DNA of 12,978 bases from a virus. Each line of letters opens with the position of its first letter. Position 1 is the stretch's first letter. The DNA lies in UHGV virus genome UHGV-1798460. One strand, written 5' to 3'. The notes below the pieces were generated by a model. That model made no database searches, was not told where the DNA came from, and saw nothing but the letters and a program-made list of their open reading frames with translations. Below are positions 204-11,916 of the stretch, piece by piece. The translations under genes were made by a program, and so were the position numbers.

Positions 204-359
204 CGCCACCAATTTGTAACCTGTGTATATGTACAGTCATTTGCTGGTTATAAACACAGTGAATTGCTCTTGCAATCTTCCAAAACTTTTTTGTTCGTGT
301 TAGGTTGAGATAACAGTGATGATACTGTTTGCACATTCAGTGTAATGAGGAGGGTGGTT

Positions 360-833
360 ATGTACAGTCCGGTACAAATAGCCAATAAATTCATAACGTT
401 GGGAAACCAACATCATAATCCTCTGACCCACATGCAACTGCAGAAGCTTACTTATATTGCCCATGGTTACTATTTAGCATTAACAGGTAAGCCTTTGCTC
501 AATGAATGTGTCTCCGCGTGGAAGTACGGTCCAGTTATTCCTGGAATGTACGATGCTTTCAAAGACTATGGGAATAAACCTGTTACGAATGTAGCAGTAG
601 CTCCTTTTGGTGGCATCGTTACTATGGATCCGCAAGCAGAGAGCATTATCGGGGCTGTTTATAAGTTTTACGGCTCGAAAAATGGAATTGAGTTATCAAC
701 TCTAACTCATATGCCAGGTACGCCTTGGTCACAAGCTTATAATGGTATTGGCTCGTCAATCATCTCAAATGATGCGATCAAGGCTTATTATCATGATTTA
801 TTGAATAACCGACAGCAATGTCAGGGCCTCTGA
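360..833 (+). CDS. DUF4065 / Panacea-domain protein (PanA-like putative antitoxin; SocA/GepA family)
   Basis: ORF track 345-833; preferred start is the ATG at 360, 6 nt after GAGGAGG (347-353). The N-terminal pattern LQKLTYIAHGYYLALTGKPLLNECVSAWKYGPVIPGMYDAFKDYG matches my memory of the DUF4065 core (LQKL.Y.A.G..L....PL......AW..GPV....Y..FK.YG). Confidence 0.7.
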   Translation: MYSPVQIANKFITLGNQHHNPLTHMQLQKLTYIAHGYYLALTGKPLLNECVSAWKYGPVIPGMYDAFKDYGNKPVTNVAVAPFGGIVTMDPQAESIIGAVYKFYGSKNGIELSTLTHMPGTPWSQAYNGIGSSIISNDAIKAYYHDLLNNRQQCQGL

Positions 834-854: not shown

Positions 855-1403
855 ATGTCTCACAATTCAGATATTTATAAACTTATCGGAGCGGCCGCAG
901 GTGTTGAAAATGGTCGCTCTGAAGCATCCTTAAACTCTACTGACAGTCAAGAACAGGTTTTTAAATCTGCATTTGAGCCGTCTAATCATGAGAGCGACGA
1001 TGATTCTTCTTCAGAAAATAAAGCTATTCTGGAGGCAGAAGAGTTTGGTTCTAATACTGGTGCATTGCATGAGTTTATGCAGCAGAACAGAATGGACAGT
1101 CTTCAAGCTCAGCTTGATATGCTCAAATCACAAGTACGGGATAAGATAGCTGACGCAACTGGTAAAGAAATAGACAATGAGCTTCGGACAAAAATGGCCT
1201 CATTCACGGTTTGGTTTATGTCGTGTTGGTGCTTATTCGTTGTCGCAATGTTTACATCGTTTCTTATTGCACATGAAGGAAAGCCTCCAGTTGAAGCGAT
1301 CGTTGCATTACTAGGTACAAGTACAATTAGTATTGTTGGTTTGGTTGGTTTCGTTGTTAGTGGATTGTTCAAATCAAGAAAAGATAGTGATAAAGAAAAA
1401 TAA
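855..1403 (+). CDS. Membrane protein: acidic, Ser/Asp-rich N-terminus, coiled-coil segment, two C-terminal TM helices; candidate toxin/effector partner of the Panacea protein
   Basis: ATG at 855 lies 21 nt after the upstream stop, with a GGGA RBS. Hydrophobic stretches FTVWFMSCWCLFVVAMFTSFLIA and IVALLGTSTISIVGLVGFVVSGLF are followed by a basic tail KSRKDSDKEK. Confidence 0.6.
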   Translation: MSHNSDIYKLIGAAAGVENGRSEASLNSTDSQEQVFKSAFEPSNHESDDDSSSENKAILEAEEFGSNTGALHEFMQQNRMDSLQAQLDMLKSQVRDKIADATGKEIDNELRTKMASFTVWFMSCWCLFVVAMFTSFLIAHEGKPPVEAIVALLGTSTISIVGLVGFVVSGLFKSRKDSDKEK

Positions 1404-1745: not shown

Positions 1746-2318
1746 TCATAATTCTGTGCTGGTGGCAGAAATTAATTTCTGCCAGATAGCGGAAACATAT
1801 TTTGCCTGATGACGGGCATCGGCCAGGGCGTTGTGCCGTTCGCCATCGAAAGGCATGTCCATTTTGGGGTCGAATCCGATGGAACGCCCAAGCGTAACGA
1901 TCGTGCGTACATCGTGGTCATTCCAGTATGCCCACGGGCAGATTTGTCCTGCTCGCTCATAAGCTCCACGTAAAATTACGTTGTCGAAGGTGGCCCCGTT
2001 ACCCCAGACTTTTAAATATTTTGTATTGTCTGCATGCTGATTAATGAAATGGCTCAGTTCAGAGAGTGCATCGCTGATCGACAAAGTATCATCAATACAG
2101 ATTGCAGCTCGTGCTTCAGGGCTCTGTTTCAACCACCACAGGATGGTATCGCCGTCAGGTGTGGCCCCTTGCTCCATAGCACTTTCCAGGCTGACAACCG
2201 TATAGAATTCTTGTCCGATGTCTCCGGTTTCTGGGGTGAAGAACACCGCGCCAATGGAAACGATTGGAGCATCCTTATTTTTCCCCATCGTCTCAAGGTC
2301 GATCATTAAGTTGTTCAT
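1746..2318 (-). CDS. DnaQ-like (DEDDh) 3'-5' exonuclease
   Basis: Start ATG at 2318 preceded by GGAGGTGAAG; its A is shared with the upstream TGA stop. Exo I-like motif MIDLETMG at the N-terminus and H-x4-D motif HNALADARHQ near the C-terminus. Confidence 0.75.
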   Translation of the reverse strand: MNNLMIDLETMGKNKDAPIVSIGAVFFTPETGDIGQEFYTVVSLESAMEQGATPDGDTILWWLKQSPEARAAICIDDTLSISDALSELSHFINQHADNTKYLKVWGNGATFDNVILRGAYERAGQICPWAYWNDHDVRTIVTLGRSIGFDPKMDMPFDGERHNALADARHQAKYVSAIWQKLISATSTEL

Positions 2319-3945: not shown

Positions 3946-4502
3946 GAATGCACTCCCTTGTGAAGCTGTTCCGCACAATGCAGCAGGGCGTCAGTCGCCT
4001 CTTTCACCGTAACGCAGTCGCCATCGTCCAGCCCGGACACCGACGCGTGCTTAACGAACGCCGCGCAAAGGTCATCAAACGCCTTAGCCCGGACTTCAGC
4101 CAGGAAAGCATCGGTGGCTGGGGTGTCTGATTGCATAGACTTTGCGCGATAATCATTCCACCCTCTTGCATATATGGGATTAACTTGCACTCCATCTTTT
4201 ACGCAATATGCCTGCCCTCCACGGTTGATAACCTTGATTTCGTCCATAGCGCCAGACTTCAGCCCCGCATTCTCCGCCGACAGCGCTGAAAACTTCTCGT
4301 GTGCCAACTTAACAGCCGCATCAGCCTGCTTAATTGACTCAATCGCTCTCTGTTGGTCTTCGGACAGAGCCGAAATCCTGGCCTCCGCTTCAGCAAATTT
4401 ACGCACAAGATATTCAGCGTTTGTTTCGTTAACCTTTAAATCTCGTGGGATGCATTTACCTTTCAGAAATCCATCCATCTCAATTAGTGACATTTGTTTC
4501 AT
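3942..4502 (-). CDS. Ead/Ea22-like phage early protein (186 aa; coiled-coil N-terminal half)
   Basis: ATG at 4502 in an ATGA overlap with the upstream stop. The family name is a tentative recollection; the function is unknown either way. Confidence 0.5.
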
Positions 4503-4663
4503 TTCTTCCCACTCCGCAACATCGCATTCAGATATTTGTTTTGATTCACTGACGGAAAAGAATTTCTCTTTAGCAATTCCTCTCTCGATGGCATTGGCTT
4601 TACGCGTTGGCGAATAATCATTTCTGCCGGAAGAATGCTGGGATTGTATGCAAGTCCTCTCAT
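4499..4663 (-). CDS. Small hypothetical protein (54 aa)
   Basis: ATG at 4663 with GAGGAA 8 nt upstream. The longer ORF-track version overlaps the upstream gene and is rejected. Confidence 0.35.
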
Positions 4664-4673
4664 GGTAAATTCC

Positions 4674-4967
4674 TCAGTCATTACTGATAGCGCCATAGCG
4701 TGAGCGGTAATTACGCAGGCGCGGGTCAATTTCAGGGAAGTGGGTATATGTGGCTTTGCGGAATGGTCGGATTGATGTCTGGTAAATTCGCTCGCGTTCT
4801 TCTTTCTCTGCAAGCCATATACAATGGCGAAATTCCTTTTCCTCTTTCGTTTCCTGCGGTAGCGACCTTATCAGGTCGTAGTTTTTTCTGAATTTATCCA
4901 GCACCTCCGATACGGAATTGCCGGAACAGCGGCGCGGGTCATCCGCACCATACAGAGGCGCTGGCAT
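4674..4967 (-). CDS. Hypothetical phage protein (97 aa, highly charged)
   Basis: ATG at 4967 with a TAAGGA RBS. Confidence 0.5.
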
Positions 4968-4990
4968 AATGGAATCCTTATGTTGCTACT

Positions 4991-5374
4991 TTAGAAGGGA
5001 ATTGAATCGTCGTATTCAGGATGATTTTGATGATTGCTACTTTGCTGCTGTTGGCTGTTTCCTGAGGTTGCAAATCCAATCTTTGCATTCAGTAATTCAA
5101 GAGTGATTGATTGACCATTTTGCCCCTGATAAACATCAACCCTGATGTTTTCTCCGGTAATTTCTACAATGCCACCTTCAACAAGAACACTACGGTAGTA
5201 ATCCGCTTGCGCTCCCGGCTTGGCAAATACAACGGCGCTGTAGTTTGTCCATTCTTTCTTTTTTGTCTGGCGATCGTAATACTGAACGCCAGCACGGATG
5301 TTGAATCCGATATTTTCCCCGGCCTGAAACTCTCTTGCGGGCTTGTTTAGTCTTACAGTAATCGAATGTGCCAT
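4991..5374 (-). CDS. Phage single-stranded DNA-binding protein (SSB-like; C-terminal acidic tail ...EYDDSIPF)
   Basis: ATG at 5374 shares a base with the erf stop (TAATG), GAAGGAG RBS. The C-terminus has a Gln/Ser-rich linker then DDSIPF, matching the E. coli SSB tip DDDIPF. It sits immediately downstream of erf. Confidence 0.65.
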   Translation of the reverse strand: MAHSITVRLNKPAREFQAGENIGFNIRAGVQYYDRQTKKKEWTNYSAVVFAKPGAQADYYRSVLVEGGIVEITGENIRVDVYQGQNGQSITLELLNAKIGFATSGNSQQQQSSNHQNHPEYDDSIPF

Positions 5375-5979
5375 TAAGCAGCCGCTCCTTCTAATTCGTC
5401 TCGTCTGATGTTGTAAACGTCCTGCGCTTTGTGCTGCTCCGGTGTGCCTTCGAGCATCTTCCACGCTTTGGCGAACGCCTGTTTAAGCTCTTCTACGGTG
5501 TTTTTCTGCATTGCTGCGTCAGTGAATGCTTTTAGAACCTGTTCAGGTGTAGGTGATGGTTTTGATTGCTTTGCTGCTGCGTTCTGCTGATGTTTATGCT
5601 CGTCGGTATCTGCATCTTTCGCATCATCAATGCCGAACAAACCATTGAGGCAATACTTGCGTGCATAAGAGCTTGTAGCTCCCGTAACTTGTGCAGAATC
5701 CATTCCTTTCTTGCTTTCTTCCTCTCGTGCAAGAGCGGTTGCTGTATGACTGTTTTCGCCATCGGTAATAGTTGCCGTGGCTTTCACGTAATACCGATCA
5801 CCAATCAAAACAACTTCATCGCTGATTGATAAAAACAGGCCATTCAGTAACGGCTTAACGCCTTCAAGAATGTCTTCGCAGCTTCTGTATTTATATTTAC
5901 CGAATGAGTTGTACTGATTTTTTGGCGCGTTCAGATTCTCCTGAATGGCTGCCAGTCTTGCGTAAAATTCTTTGCTCAT
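5374..5979 (-). CDS. erf: Erf-family single-strand annealing recombinase
   Basis: First ATG at 5979 gives MSKEFYARLAAIQENLNAPKNQYNSFGKYKYRSCEDILEGVKPLL..., recognised as the P22 Erf-type N-terminal domain. The ORF-track TTG start at 6009 is less likely. Confidence 0.8.
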   Translation of the reverse strand: MSKEFYARLAAIQENLNAPKNQYNSFGKYKYRSCEDILEGVKPLLNGLFLSISDEVVLIGDRYYVKATATITDGENSHTATALAREEESKKGMDSAQVTGATSSYARKYCLNGLFGIDDAKDADTDEHKHQQNAAAKQSKPSPTPEQVLKAFTDAAMQKNTVEELKQAFAKAWKMLEGTPEQHKAQDVYNIRRDELEGAAA

Positions 5980-6068
5980 ATGTTTGTTCTCAGAATGGAC
6001 ATGGCCCAATGAAATAACGCTGATTTAATACTTCAGTCTTTGCCGCATTTAAAAATACGCGAACACCT

Positions 6069-6239
6069 TCACGATCTCCCTTCTGGCGATACATTAACGC
6101 CTGCTGCGTGTACATGCGTCTCTGTAACTTGCTCTCCTTCACTGTGGTTGCAAGTGACATGAATATCTCCTTCGTTACCGATTAATTCTTTCATCTGACG
6201 AATGAATTCTTCGTCTGACCAGTTATCTGTAAAACTCAT
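6069..6239 (-). CDS. Small acidic protein (56 aa) between kil and erf; positionally equivalent to P22 arf
   Basis: ATG at 6239 in an ATGA overlap with the kil-like stop. No sequence-based identification. Confidence 0.35.
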   Translation of the reverse strand: MSFTDNWSDEEFIRQMKELIGNEGDIHVTCNHSEGEQVTETHVHAAGVNVSPEGRS

Positions 6240-6388
6240 TTCCTGCGATACCACGGAAGGTTGATAGCTGATTTCATCTCTTTATTTGCTTCAAGCCACA
6301 TTTTTGAATCACCAATAAATCTGGCTATTACTGCTTTGTTTTGTGCTGCACGAAGCATCTGGTGATTGATGGCTATTTCATTGCGCAT
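6236..6388 (-). CDS. kil: Kil-like host cell-division inhibitor (50 aa)
   Basis: Below the ORF-track size cutoff; found by manual translation. ATG at 6388 with GAGG 7 nt upstream, overlapping the cIII 3' end as kil does in lambda. Product MRNEIAINHQMLRAAQNKAVIARFIGDSKMWLEANKEM...; the FIGD motif and position fit Kil, recalled from memory. Confidence 0.5.
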   Translation of the reverse strand: MRNEIAINHQMLRAAQNKAVIARFIGDSKMWLEANKEMKSAINLPWYRRK

Positions 6389-6504
6389 AATAAGACCTCA
6401 ACTCTTTTCCATCCGTCACGTAATTTACGGGTGATTCGTTCAAGTAAAGATTCATTTAGTTGGAAGGCACCCATGCGAGCGCCTCCCGCGATTGCGTAAA
6501 TCAT
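6373..6504 (-). CDS. cIII: CIII (FtsH/HflB protease inhibitor)
   Basis: Below the ORF-track cutoff; manual translation. ATG at 6504 with AAGGAA 6 nt upstream. The product contains ESLLERITRKLRDGWKR, which I recall as identical to the central amphipathic helix of lambda CIII. Confidence 0.75.
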   Translation of the reverse strand: MIYAIAGGARMGAFQLNESLLERITRKLRDGWKRVEVLLCAMK

Positions 6505-6528
6505 GGGTGGTTCCTTATGTTGGTTTTA

Positions 6529-7497
6529 TTAGTAGGTTATTTTTGTTGCGAATACTTCGCCTTTTACGATGGCTGTTATGATATTTTTAGCAACATCTTC
6601 TGATGCACCAACCTTGATAAGGTCAGCAAGTATTTTGTTATTTACTTCTTTCCGGTGAGCTTTATCCTTTGCTCTACACTCTTCCTCTTCCTTGATTCTT
6701 TTTTCTTCTGCTATTCTGGCTTGCTCTTTTGCTTCAGCCTCGCGCCGGATTCGTTCAGCCTCCTCCTGTGCTTTTCGGCGTTCTGCTTCGATTGCCGCCT
6801 GCTTTTCTCTTTCAGCTCGTTCTGCTGCCTCTTTTGCTTCGCGCTGTGCTCGTTGCTCGGCTTCAATGCGTTCACGCTCTGCACGTTCCGCTGCGGCCTT
6901 AGCTTCTGCTTCTCGCCTTGCTGCTGCTTCAATTTCGGCTTTTGCCTTTGCTTCGGCTTCTGCTCTGGCTTTCTCTTCAGCTTCTCTTTTTAAGCGTTCT
7001 TCATGCTCTCGCTTTTCCTGCTCCGCTTTGAGTCTTGCCTCTTCTCTTTGGCGGTCAAATTCGCGATCCATCAAAATCGCTATTTCATGGTCAGACTCAA
7101 TTTGCTTTGCGAGAGCTTCAGCTGCTGCCTTAGCTTCTTCTTCGGCTTTAATCCGCGCCTGTTCCTCTTCATAATCAGTAAGAGGCTGGCGTGCCTTGGA
7201 TTTCAGCTCATCAAGGCGATCACGCACTGTCTTGCGGTTGGCATCAATTAGCTTTGGAATTTCCTTCAGTTCAGCAACAAGGTCTTTTCCAAGACCATCG
7301 AGATATGTTTTCGTCTGCGCAACTTTATACGCCAGAGAAGCGATCTCCTTTCTGCCCTTTGCCGTTGTGATATCAGGCACAAAGGACATAACTTCACGTT
7401 CAACCTTTTGAAGGATTTCTTCAATCTGGTCGGCAGACTGAAATACAGTCATTGCATTTGCTTTTTCAATAACAACTAAATCTGTTACTTCACTCAT
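6529..7497 (-). CDS. Coiled-coil protein (322 aa) with a long E/R/K/A-rich central repeat region
   Basis: Start ATG at 7497 with GGAGGA upstream. The ORF-track 5' extension to 7551 runs through the terminator hairpin and is rejected. The central 150 residues or so are almost entirely E, A, K and R. Confidence 0.65.
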   Translation of the reverse strand: MSEVTDLVVIEKANAMTVFQSADQIEEILQKVEREVMSFVPDITTAKGRKEIASLAYKVAQTKTYLDGLGKDLVAELKEIPKLIDANRKTVRDRLDELKSKARQPLTDYEEEQARIKAEEEAKAAAEALAKQIESDHEIAILMDREFDRQREEARLKAEQEKREHEERLKREAEEKARAEAEAKAKAEIEAAARREAEAKAAAERAERERIEAEQRAQREAKEAAERAEREKQAAIEAERRKAQEEAERIRREAEAKEQARIAEEKRIKEEEECRAKDKAHRKEVNNKILADLIKVGASEDVAKNIITAIVKGEVFATKITY

Positions 7498-8214: not shown

Positions 8215-8418
8215 TTACCTCGCTGTAACCTGCTTACTTGTACGATGACCAGCTGCGAAAAGCGCAACTTCTGGCAGGCAGACAGTACCACCTTCAACTT
8301 CCTTCTGAAGCGTTCCGGCAAGCGAAATGGCTCTTGAAACACGTTTACTGGCTCCGTCCATGATTTTCATGAAAGCCATATAGTGCATTGGCTTCTTTCC
8401 TTGCTTGTTTGGCATCAT
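8215..8418 (-). CDS. Small ORF at the position normally held by the N antiterminator; start uncertain and no arginine-rich motif
   Basis: The ORF overlaps the HNH gene 3' end by 74 nt if it starts at 8418. Candidate ATGs at 8388 (weak AAGGAAAG) and 8361. It is the second gene after PL. Confidence 0.3.
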   Translation of the reverse strand: MMPNKQGKKPMHYMAFMKIMDGASKRVSRAISLAGTLQKEVEGGTVCLPEVALFAAGHRTSKQVTAR

Positions 8419-8878
8419 CTAAAAGTTTGAATGAGCCTAGGTATTTTCGTTTTCCATCCACAGTTATCGATGCAACATAAAACCCATGCTCTTTTCTTGC
8501 TTCAACACCTGTAACTCCAGTTGATGAAGATGATTTTAAAGGCATGTTTTTCATATTCTCTTTGAAAGAAACGCTTCTTAAATTGGAGATTCTGTTGTCA
8601 TCCTTAACGCCGTTTATGTGATCAATCACATCAGGCCAGTAGCCATGCACGTAAAGCCATGCAAGTCTGTGAGACTTAAATTTTTTACCTCCAATATTTA
8701 TTCTCAGATAACCCTTGTTGTCAGGTGAGCCAGCCTTTTTACCTGGATACTTCTTGTTCCACGTCAAGGCAGCTCTGTTATCCGCAAACAAATGCTTTGC
8801 TCTCGGCTTCCAATAAAAGTCACCACTCACAGGATTGTAATAAAGAATCTCCCTTACAGACGCTTGAGTAAGATCCAC
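8345..8878 (-). CDS. HNH endonuclease with C-terminal AP2 DNA-binding domain (free-standing homing-endonuclease type)
   Basis: GTG start at 8878 with AGGAGG 5 nt upstream. HNH_3-type motif HRLAWLYVHGYWPDVIDHINGVKDDNRISNLR, followed by an AP2-like GVTGVEARKEHGFYVASITVDGKRKYLGSF. Confidence 0.8.
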   Translation of the reverse strand: MDLTQASVREILYYNPVSGDFYWKPRAKHLFADNRAALTWNKKYPGKKAGSPDNKGYLRINIGGKKFKSHRLAWLYVHGYWPDVIDHINGVKDDNRISNLRSVSFKENMKNMPLKSSSSTGVTGVEARKEHGFYVASITVDGKRKYLGSFKLLDDAKQARKEANALYGFHENHGRSQ

Positions 8879-9184: not shown

Positions 9185-9916
9185 TTAGTAGTCAACTACA
9201 GACCACCAGAAGATTCTTCCGATGATCTCGATATCGCTTAGATTCTTTTCTTCTTGTGGGTATTCCAGTGAGTTAAAGCTTCTAATGCTTACCTTGTCAG
9301 GCCCTGATCGAAAGAGAATCTTAATGCGTTTCCAACCGTTCTCGTTAATGGCGTAAATCTTTCCGTCAACTATTTTCTTATCGTTGGTGTTAACAGCAAC
9401 TGTTGTTCCATCAGGAATGTTTGGCTCCATGCTGTTGCCACGAGCCGGAAAACAAACAACCCCGCTTCCATCACTGTTCGCGCCAACTCTGCGAAGGGTT
9501 GATTTGGAGAAGCGCAACATAAAGCCGTTGTGATCTTCATCAATCACCCGACCATCCCCGCATGCAAACTCAATATCTTTAAGGTAAGGAATTTCAACTT
9601 CATCACCTCTTAAAGGCGTTCCTCCATCCCATGGGTCCAAATATCCCCACGTGCTTTCATGAGGAATAGAAGATTTTGGATTATAAGGTTCAACTCCCTC
9701 ATCACGCATTGGCCCAGTTCCATCGGAAAGCCATTCCGTACGAACTCCAAGCACTTTTGATATTTCAAAAAGTTTGCGCGTATTGCGTGTTTTTCCAGAC
9801 GTAAGTTTCCAGACGCTTGGCTGAGACATGCCAACAGCATTGCCAAGAGAAGCCTGAGTAAACCCAGCCTGATCCATCGCGTATGTAAGCCTTTGAGAAA
9901 AAGTATCTAGTTTCAT
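9185..9916 (-). CDS. cI: CI-like phage repressor (N-terminal HTH, C-terminal S24 LexA-type autopeptidase domain)
   Basis: HTH region QASLGNAVGMSQPSVWKLTSGK; S24 motifs GNSMEP (Ser nucleophile) and a downstream KR. Divergent from cro across an operator region. Confidence 0.8.
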   Translation of the reverse strand: MKLDTFSQRLTYAMDQAGFTQASLGNAVGMSQPSVWKLTSGKTRNTRKLFEISKVLGVRTEWLSDGTGPMRDEGVEPYNPKSSIPHESTWGYLDPWDGGTPLRGDEVEIPYLKDIEFACGDGRVIDEDHNGFMLRFSKSTLRRVGANSDGSGVVCFPARGNSMEPNIPDGTTVAVNTNDKKIVDGKIYAINENGWKRIKILFRSGPDKVSIRSFNSLEYPQEEKNLSDIEIIGRIFWWSVVDY

Positions 9917-10968: not shown

Positions 10969-11916
10969 ATGAGCAATACAGCAAAAATCTACGATTTCAG
11001 CGCCGCACACGAGCGCAGGAGCAACAGGATGGAGAACCAGAAAACTGGTTACATTCCGTTGTACCGGAGCATTCTGAAACAGTCATGGGCGAAAGATGTT
11101 TATCTTCGCACCCTGTGGGAAAACCTTCTCCTGAATGCCGCCAGAAAGCCATACAAAGCGAATTTCAAAGGTCATGAATGGCATCTGCAACCCGGTCAAC
11201 TGGTTGTGACAGCAGCTGATTTAGGTCTTCAGTTATGCGACAGACATGGCAAGCCAGCAAGCCGTGATCAGGTTGAGCGGATGCTTCAGGTTTTTGTGAA
11301 AGAGGGGATGATCTCCATTGATGGAGAGAAGCAAAAAGGTCGTGTGATAACCATCACAAATTACCATGAATATGCTCAAAAAATGGACAATTCACCCGCA
11401 CATGAAGCCGCACAAACAACCGCACATGATGCCGCACATGATGAAGCCAGTAATGGCGCGGCATTCAGCGCACATGCCGCACATGAAAGCGCACATGAAG
11501 CCGCACAAACAACCGCACATCATGAACAAGAAGGTATTAACAAGAATATAAATAATACCCCCCTACCCCCCAATGGGGGAGGCGATGGGCAGGTTAAACC
11601 TGAACGTCGCAAGGCAGAACGAATCGACTACGAATCCTTCCTGAACGCCTACAACACCGAAGTCGGTGACAGACTTCCACACGCTGTTGCGGTCAACGAG
11701 AAACGAAAACGCCGCCTGAAGAAAATCATTCCGCAACTGAAAACGCCAAACGTGGACGGTTTCAGAGCGTATGTCAGGGCGTTTGTGCATCAGGCCAAGC
11801 CGTTTTACTTCGGAGACAACGACACTGGCTGGACGGCAGATTTTGATTACCTGCTGAGGGAAGATTCGTTAACGGGAGTACGGGAAGGGAAGTTTGCAGA
11901 CAGGGGGATTGCATGA
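10969..11916 (+). CDS. Replication initiator, lambda O-like (N-terminal iteron-binding domain, repetitive linker, C-terminal domain)
   Basis: N-terminus [11 protein letters not shown] resembles lambda O MTNTAKILNFG. The gene contains the tandem repeat and AT-rich tract expected of an embedded origin. Its stop overlaps the helicase start (ATGA). Confidence 0.7.
11396..11524. repeat. Iteron-like 12-bp tandem repeats (CCGCACATGANG family), two blocks, inside the O-like gene; candidate replication origin
   Basis: Units read at 11396, 11408, 11420, 11432 and 11477, 11489, 11501, 11513. A 30-nt segment gcacatgaagccgcacaaacaaccgcacat occurs twice (11398-11427 and 11490-11519). Confidence 0.55.
11527..11580. 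promoter_or_regulatory. AT-rich tract plus C/G palindrome next to the iterons; candidate DNA-unwinding element of the origin
   Basis: aaggtattaacaagaatataaataata followed by cccccctaccccccaatggggga. Confidence 0.4.

Follow-up and report, generated by a model that had tools for sequence, protein, structure and literature searches.

A phage-encoded SSB with an acidic IPF tip follows erf in an HK022/HK97-type recombination module and probably recruits Erf

In this study, two recombination genes at positions 4991-5979 of a stretch of DNA from UHGV virus genome UHGV-1798460 were analysed; the whole stretch, 12,978 nucleotides in length, is hereafter called the window. Both genes, erf and ssb, are encoded on the minus strand. 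An earlier note on this DNA had delimited the segment, and its limits are exact, running from the ssb stop codon to the erf start codon. The features of the locus are as follows:

4674..4967, minus strand: abc2, anti-RecBCD protein and third gene of the module (Pfam Anti-RecBCD_p2 PF11043, E = 1.2e-63, full length)
4991..5374, minus strand: ssb, an SSB-1b / HK97 gp40-type protein of 127 aa plus stop codon
4994..5020, minus strand: acidic C-terminal tip PEYDDSIPF, SSB residues 119-127 (from the translation; acidic stretch and (I/P)PF end kept family-wide)
5021..5065, minus strand: Q/S/N-rich disordered linker, SSB residues 104-118 (pLDDT <50 over residues 107-121)
5066..5374, minus strand: predicted OB-fold domain, SSB residues 1-103
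5372..5376, minus strand: TAATG, in which the erf stop and the ssb start overlap (seen in the sequence itself)
5374..5979, minus strand: erf, Erf single-strand annealing protein, 201 aa plus stop codon (MSKEFYARL...GAAA)
5383..5544, minus strand: Erf C-terminal domain (CTD), residues 146-199, a predicted three-helix module and proposed reader of the SSB tip
5385..5390, minus strand: Shine-Dalgarno AAGGAG for ssb, within the erf 3' end (read directly from the sequence)
5551..5967, minus strand: ERF annealing core, Erf residues 5-143 (extent of the Pfam ERF match)
6236-6388: kil, a neighbour of the module
9185-9916: cI (S24 repressor), a neighbouring gene

The erf gene starts with an ATG at 5979-5977 and ends with a TAA at 5376-5374, and ssb starts with an ATG at 5374-5372 and ends with a TAA at 4993-4991, the C-terminal end of its product being ...NHQNHPEYDDSIPF. 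The overlap of the two genes, on which the claim of translational coupling had been based, is real: the junction reads GCT GCT TAATG GCA, and base 5374 is common to the erf stop codon and the ssb start codon. A strong AAGGAG is located at 5390-5385, 10 nt 5' of the ssb ATG. Together, the overlap and this internal Shine-Dalgarno sequence make translational coupling of erf and ssb a reasonable expectation. Promoter and terminator scanning of 4400-6600 returned sites no more numerous than in shuffled sequence, which fits an internal position inside a long operon.

The locus is the erf-ssb-abc2 recombination ('Rec') module in the early-left operon of an HK022/HK97-type lambdoid (pro)phage. The genes are ordered erf, ssb and abc2, next to kil and upstream of cI, as in HK97, where abc2 also comes after ssb. 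Other neighbours, including cro, cII and an O-like replication gene, identify the region as the early region of a lambdoid prophage. All 989 bases of the segment share 98.4% DNA identity with HK022, and identities of 98-99% were obtained with HK022, HK544, mEp213, Sf101, CUS-3 and several Stx phages. The segment is carried by 580 of 5426 complete E. coli genomes, and the small ORF is labelled 'hypothetical protein' among the E. coli genome records listed. The erf-ssb-abc2 module is already known and common, and has been present in GenBank since HK022 and HK97 were sequenced; a paper of 2025 assigned the small protein to the SSBs from its predicted fold.

Several further genes of the window were recorded. 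Between kil and erf, a 56-aa ORF (5993-6160, minus strand) occupies the slot of HK97 gp42 and matches PHROG 1723, labelled 'recombinase', and no Pfam family. The gene at 6532-7497 (minus strand) encodes 322 aa, of which a long central part is rich in Glu, Ala and Lys; the product matches PHROG 1376 (unknown function), the annotation of phage HF4s calls it similar to phi80 Agt, and its first ~115 residues share 41% identity with the product of the gene that lies just upstream of an SSB-1b homolog on a marine phage contig (L098:1362-2414). This product may be another recombination or replication accessory protein. The early-left operon also contains, farther on, a gene for an Rv2179c/DnaQ-like 3'-5' exonuclease (1749-2318, minus strand; PF16473, E = 1e-75), which is followed by a PrtN-like gene of the pyocin activator family at 1440-1736. 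On the strand opposite to the early-left operon, a SocA/Panacea antitoxin-domain protein (345-833, plus strand; PF13274, E = 6e-18) and, 21 bases after it, a 182-aa protein (855-1403, plus strand) that has a strongly hydrophobic C-terminal third and matches only PHROGs of unknown function look like a Panacea-type toxin-antitoxin pair. An HNH_3 endonuclease gene (8348-8878, minus strand; PF13392, E = 3e-15) located between the N region and cI is probably a homing-type insertion. Inside the O-like replication gene, positions 11396-11507 hold a degenerate 12-base repeat with the consensus CCGCACATGAAG in 9.6 copies, which encodes a repetitive protein stretch at the position where lambdoid origins carry iterons.

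The identity of the first gene product is solid. Erf matched the Pfam ERF family PF04404 over residues 5-143 with E = 2.1e-44 and 151.6 bits (cut-off 25), which places it in the ERF superfamily, and it also matched PHROG 155. It is 100% identical to the Erf of HK446/HK633 and 74.6% identical over its full length (residues 1-200) to P22 Erf, the biochemically characterised prototype, and is by sequence a close relative of that annealase.

The small protein was less readily classified. The 127-aa sequence had no match in Pfam at E up to 1, scored 16.4 bits against the curated bacterial-type SSB model TIGR00621 (NCBIfam), below its cut-off of 53.95, and returned insignificant results in sequence and profile searches of the PDB, the best being an SSB at E = 0.04. 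Residues 2-127 matched the phage SSB family PHROG 44 with E = 1.8e-28. An AlphaFold2 model built from 44 homologs had a pLDDT of 84, exceeding 90 over residues 1-103, and these residues were modelled as strand-strand-strand-helix-strand-strand, the OB topology. Foldseek searches of the PDB with the model yielded 44 matches at E <1e-3, all of which were bacterial, mitochondrial or apicoplast SSBs or PriB, and identity in the structural alignments to SSBs was about 15%. The earlier note would have given up its SSB-like label had no OB fold been predicted; one is predicted with high confidence, and its closest structural counterparts are bacterial SSBs.

Profile-sequence comparison with E. coli SSB using hhalign gave a probability of 85%. 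In this alignment, on which the correspondence depends, Y32, W42, F50 and Y82 pair with the ssDNA-stacking residues W40, W54, F60 and W88 of E. coli SSB, and the four positions are conserved in the 44-sequence alignment as Y (44/44), W (43/44), F (44/44) and Y/F (44/44). The tetramer-interface residue His55 of E. coli SSB aligns to Thr43, which is invariant among the 44 sequences. The disordered linker and acidic (I/P)PF tip of bacterial-type SSBs are also present. Modelling and alignment thus support the identification of the protein as a small, highly diverged member of the SSB family in which a short disordered linker joins an OB domain to an acidic IPF tip. An OB-fold protein of another role, such as a PriB-like adaptor, an anti-defence protein or a T7 gp2.5-like annealase, is very improbable. 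The gp2.5-like identity was rejected, since gp2.5, whose OB fold carries a long additional helix, is not the closest structural match.

In sequence, the family stands apart and has few members: of 1.84 billion representatives of 50%-identity clusters, only 216 matched it with an E-value of 0.001 or lower, and the 150 best of them, as listed, were all small proteins (47-229 aa). Scanning IMG/VR with the family alignment gave near-identical E. coli prophage loci only, and the diversity described below was taken from scans seeded with distant homologs. PGAP and most phage records still read 'hypothetical protein', and the fold, the aromatic residues and the tip justify annotation as a phage SSB.

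The C-terminal tip resembles that of the host. The E. coli SSB tip is MDFDDDIPF; PEYDDSIPF is identical to it at 5/9 positions, and two more are conservative (D to E, F to Y). The host-like character of the DDSIPF tail was evaluated among homologs. Among the complete close homologs, 81 of 103 terminate in PF, and an acidic residue stands just before PF in 78. In a wider set of 117 full-length 50%-identity cluster representatives, 64 have an acidic stretch and a PF end, 12 have the tip and a short extension, and 6 have near variants. The linker is hypervariable among homologs, ranging from about 15 to >90 residues and being unalignable. The tip appears to be under selection, because it is conserved while the linker varies freely.

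The resemblance to the host tail is therefore real and not due to chance, but the 'mimicry' proposed in the earlier note is probably the wrong word, and the tip is better described as a retained ancestral feature of SSBs. Convergent mimicry of the host tail was set aside: given an SSB-like OB domain and a tip that is kept family-wide, retention is the simpler explanation. One homolog carries the exact host 11-mer PPMDFDDDIPF, and SSB tails can be exchanged between proteins, as this homolog suggests. The nine-residue E. coli tip used for comparison agrees with the SSB-Ct peptide in PMC6393309.

Two deposited records of the same gene end differently. HK97 gene 40 (AF069529, L002:1364-1753) ends in ...YDDSNPILI through one extra C relative to window positions 4975-5075, and without this C it reads ...DDSIPF-stop. 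As deposited, the published SSB-1b prototype thus hides its SSB tip; the cause is a sequencing error or a real frameshift. In phage HF4s (L001:1771-2243), ssb is broken by a frameshift: the first part is a 94-aa 'ssb protein', and the ...DDSIPF end is still encoded by a second ORF of 36 aa.

Tails extended beyond the IPF tip were also observed in many phage SSBs, both canonical and SSB-1b (L265, L270, L273, L282, L298, L300, L303 and others; likewise L004:4001-4534, P0101 and P0119). A recurrent extension, ...PFPRH(A/T)IHAI, is found in 11 distinct sequences, and two more end in QFN(K/R)HSIHSI; further examples are ...DDDIPFNQGGR and a PPMDFDDDIPF with 17 aa behind it. Tails that continue after PF have no free carboxylate on a terminal Phe, which is described as a key contact for host partners (PMC6393309). 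Such tails may be masked or phage-specific.

The pairing of Erf with an SSB, the central claim of the earlier note, extends well beyond this phage: the order of an Erf gene followed by an SSB gene is retained in phages as distant as those of E. coli, those of Vibrio and marine ones. The Vibrio phages have an Erf of 56% identity directly followed by an SSB homolog of 50% identity, and in metagenomic phage contigs, too, the gene just before the SSB homolog encodes an ERF protein. Across the loci surveyed, the genes directly upstream of SSB-1b homologs encode Erf, a Sak4-like AAA_24 ATPase, a Rad52-like protein, a YqaJ exonuclease, Gp157 or a coiled-coil protein. Judged from these neighbourhoods, the SSB-1b type is a general partner of phage recombination genes, and Erf is its usual partner in enterobacterial phages.

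Gene order also bears on the view that the protein is chiefly a replication SSB, for theta or rolling-circle replication, and that its adjacency to erf reflects operon packing with no functional pairing. The YqaJ exonuclease, Gp157 and coiled-coil neighbours are not annealases, and one homolog has no recombination gene nearby, as this view would lead one to expect. However, the window ssb shares one base with erf, has abc2 on its other side and is distant from O and P; elsewhere its neighbours are mostly recombination genes (Erf, Rad52-like, Sak4-like and YqaJ), and the analogous SSB of HK620 stimulates its annealase. A role confined to replication is accordingly regarded as improbable.

The C-terminal domain of Erf (residues 146-199) falls outside the Pfam ERF match and was predicted by AF2 as a three-helix bundle with a pLDDT of 89. 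Its identity with the C-terminal ends of AAA_24/Sak4-like proteins of Erwinia phage 59 and a Leminorella prophage is 51-52%; in the Leminorella prophage, an SSB-1b homolog comes after the CTD-bearing AAA_24/Sak4-like protein. Searching for homologs of the CTD alone retrieved just 18 fragments, and a fold search with it retrieved only generic helical bundles, from thousands of which this bundle is not distinguishable.

The relationship between this domain and the SSB tip was surveyed at 306 loci by counting distinct pairs of SSAP C-terminus and downstream tail; the pairs are phylogenetically non-independent. The counts, given as the upstream SSAP, the downstream SSB type and the ends of the SSB, are as follows:

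Erf with CTD, SSB-1b: 31 PF; 2 with Pro replaced; 2 frameshifted records (HK97, HF4s)
Erf with CTD, canonical SSB: 1 PF; 1 PF plus 8 extra residues
Sak4-like with CTD, canonical SSB: 32 PF (mostly PMDFDDDIPF); 13 with an 8-residue extension
Sak4-like with CTD, SSB-1b: 1 PF
Erf without CTD, SSB-1b: 5 with no IPF motif; 1 PF (L134)
Erf without CTD, canonical SSB: 4 PF; 1 PF plus extension

In 65 distinct pairs, an SSAP with the CTD stood ahead of a PF-tipped SSB; these pairs come from related sequences and are not independent events. The 13 extended tails behind Sak4-like proteins with the CTD comprise 11 that continue after PF and 2 that read QFN(K/R)HSIHSI. All the IPF-less SSB-1b variants in the survey (5/5) come after Erfs without the CTD; their tails end in ...YNNNRG (L087), ...YNQGRG (L146), ...NFNQPQR (L088 and L092) and ...PPGHRR (L139). 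The C-terminus of the Erf at L134, the apparent exception, looks like a divergent CTD missed by the profile. L087 is the most telling case for a link between CTD and tip: its Erf core is close to that of the window, and the Erf C-terminus and the SSB tail are both replaced.

These counts bear on two other functions that the tail might serve. According to the first, which is how the earlier note saw the tail engaging or competing for host partners, the tail would act mainly on host proteins (chi/Pol III, PriA, RecQ, RecJ, ExoI, RNase HI), either bringing them to phage ssDNA or serving as a decoy that draws them off host SSB. The match to the host tip at 5/9 positions includes the terminal IPF and two acidic residues, the exact host 11-mer occurs in one homolog, and PF tips are found beside many different partner genes, as fits a host-directed reader. 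Against this stand the IPF-less homologs, which still adjoin Erf, so that not every member needs the tip, and the many phage SSBs extended past PF, which would lack the free Phe carboxylate (PMC6393309). As the main function of the tail this is possible but on balance unlikely; it is compatible with recruitment of Erf, and the two are not mutually exclusive. Host SSB-interacting proteins can presumably also read the phage tail, which is near-identical to the host tip.

According to the second, the acidic tail is mainly autoregulatory and folds onto its own OB domain, tuning ssDNA affinity and cooperativity. T7 gp2.5 and T4 gp32 have acidic tails with autoregulation as in E. coli SSB, and a linker of ~15 residues would keep the tip near the OB domain. 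Charge alone, however, would not demand a conserved, precise IPF end, and the co-occurrence of the tip with the SSAP CTD would be left unexplained. We consider autoregulation as the main role slightly less credible even than a role confined to replication.

The reading that we prefer is that of a Rec module in which the tip of a phage SSB recruits Erf, and we assign it a probability of roughly 0.7. Phage ssDNA would be exposed by Abc2-modified RecBCD or by replication, and the phage SSB would coat it. The exposed DDSIPF tip would then recruit Erf to the SSB-covered ssDNA, most likely via the three-helix domain at the Erf C-terminus, after which Erf would displace SSB and anneal complementary strands. 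By analogy with the Sak4-SSB pair of HK620 and with Redbeta, and from the co-occurrence of the domain and the tip, it is more likely that the first client of the SSB tail is the phage's own Erf. From the same co-occurrence and precedents, we infer that reading of the SSB tip by the Erf CTD is the most economical model.

The CTD cannot be the sole tip reader, because PF-tipped SSBs also follow SSAPs and exonucleases without it. HK620 Sak4, a core-only RecA, probably reads its SSB tail without such a domain. Alternatively, the Erf CTD could bind another shared partner. What might be new here is the portable CTD as a candidate tip reader. The stronger form of this idea, that Erf 146-199 is a portable three-helix SSB-tip reader grafted onto unrelated annealase cores and exchanged together with the SSB tail, is put forward tentatively, at somewhat less than even odds. 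If it is true, compatibility between annealase and SSB would be set by a swappable domain-peptide pair, and swapping the small CTD, instead of the whole protein, could re-programme the host range of recombineering; the in vivo need of P22 Erf for its C-terminal domain would also be accounted for. Erf-family annealases are little used in recombineering, and the compact, naturally coupled erf-ssb pair is an obvious construct that brings with it a candidate domain-peptide interface between the Erf CTD and the DDSIPF tip.

The window can be compared with several known systems. Its closest counterparts are the unnamed ORF of HK022, to which the window protein is 100% identical, and the HK97/HK106 type, to which it is ~94% identical and which occupies the same slot (HK97 gene 40) between erf and abc2; there is essentially no difference between the window protein and HK97 gp40 or the HK022 ORF. 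HK97 gp40 was named SSB-1b from its AlphaFold 3 fold and stated to be experimentally unstudied in PMC12315714 (Genome Res 2025), the main text of which leaves the C-terminal tip unmentioned. E. coli SSB (PF00436; 1EYG, 1QVC) shares the OB fold, the disordered linker, the acidic IPF tip and aromatic residues at the four stacking positions with the window protein. It differs in its linker of >50 residues within a 178-aa sequence, compared with ~15 residues in the window protein, and in the tetramer contact made by His55, where the window protein has Thr.

In P22 (arf-erf-abc1-abc2), the 74.6% identity of Erf to that of the window includes the CTD, and abc2 lies downstream in both phages. P22 has abc1 after erf where the window has its SSB gene, so P22 Erf must use host SSB; because P22 Erf possesses the CTD and the phage lacks an SSB of its own, it presumably uses the host DDDIPF tip. 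By analogy, the window Erf is probably also able to use host SSB. Lambda Redbeta and Erf share an annealase core followed by a small three-helix C-terminal domain, which in Erf is predicted. The Redbeta domain binds the SSB C-terminal peptide, for which the terminal Phe is required (PMC6393309). No sequence similarity was detected between the Redbeta and Erf CTDs, and lambda encodes no SSB of its own. RecT-SSB compatibility is set by the last 7 SSB residues (bioRxiv 2020.04.14.041095), and phage SSBs in operons with annealases have been described as frequent (PMC12054835).

The HK620 SSB (HkaK, 'SSB-2') occupies the same slot as the window SSB, directly after the annealase and before abc2, and its NDYPPF tail resembles the host tip. 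The annealase of HK620 is the RecA-like Sak4, whereas that of the window is Erf, and the HK620 SSB is of a different sequence type. Its last six residues (NDYPPF) are needed for Sak4 loading onto ssDNA coated with SSB and for the stimulation of recombineering (PMC5928155). The Sak4-SSB pair of HK620 is the best functional model for the erf-ssb pair of the window.
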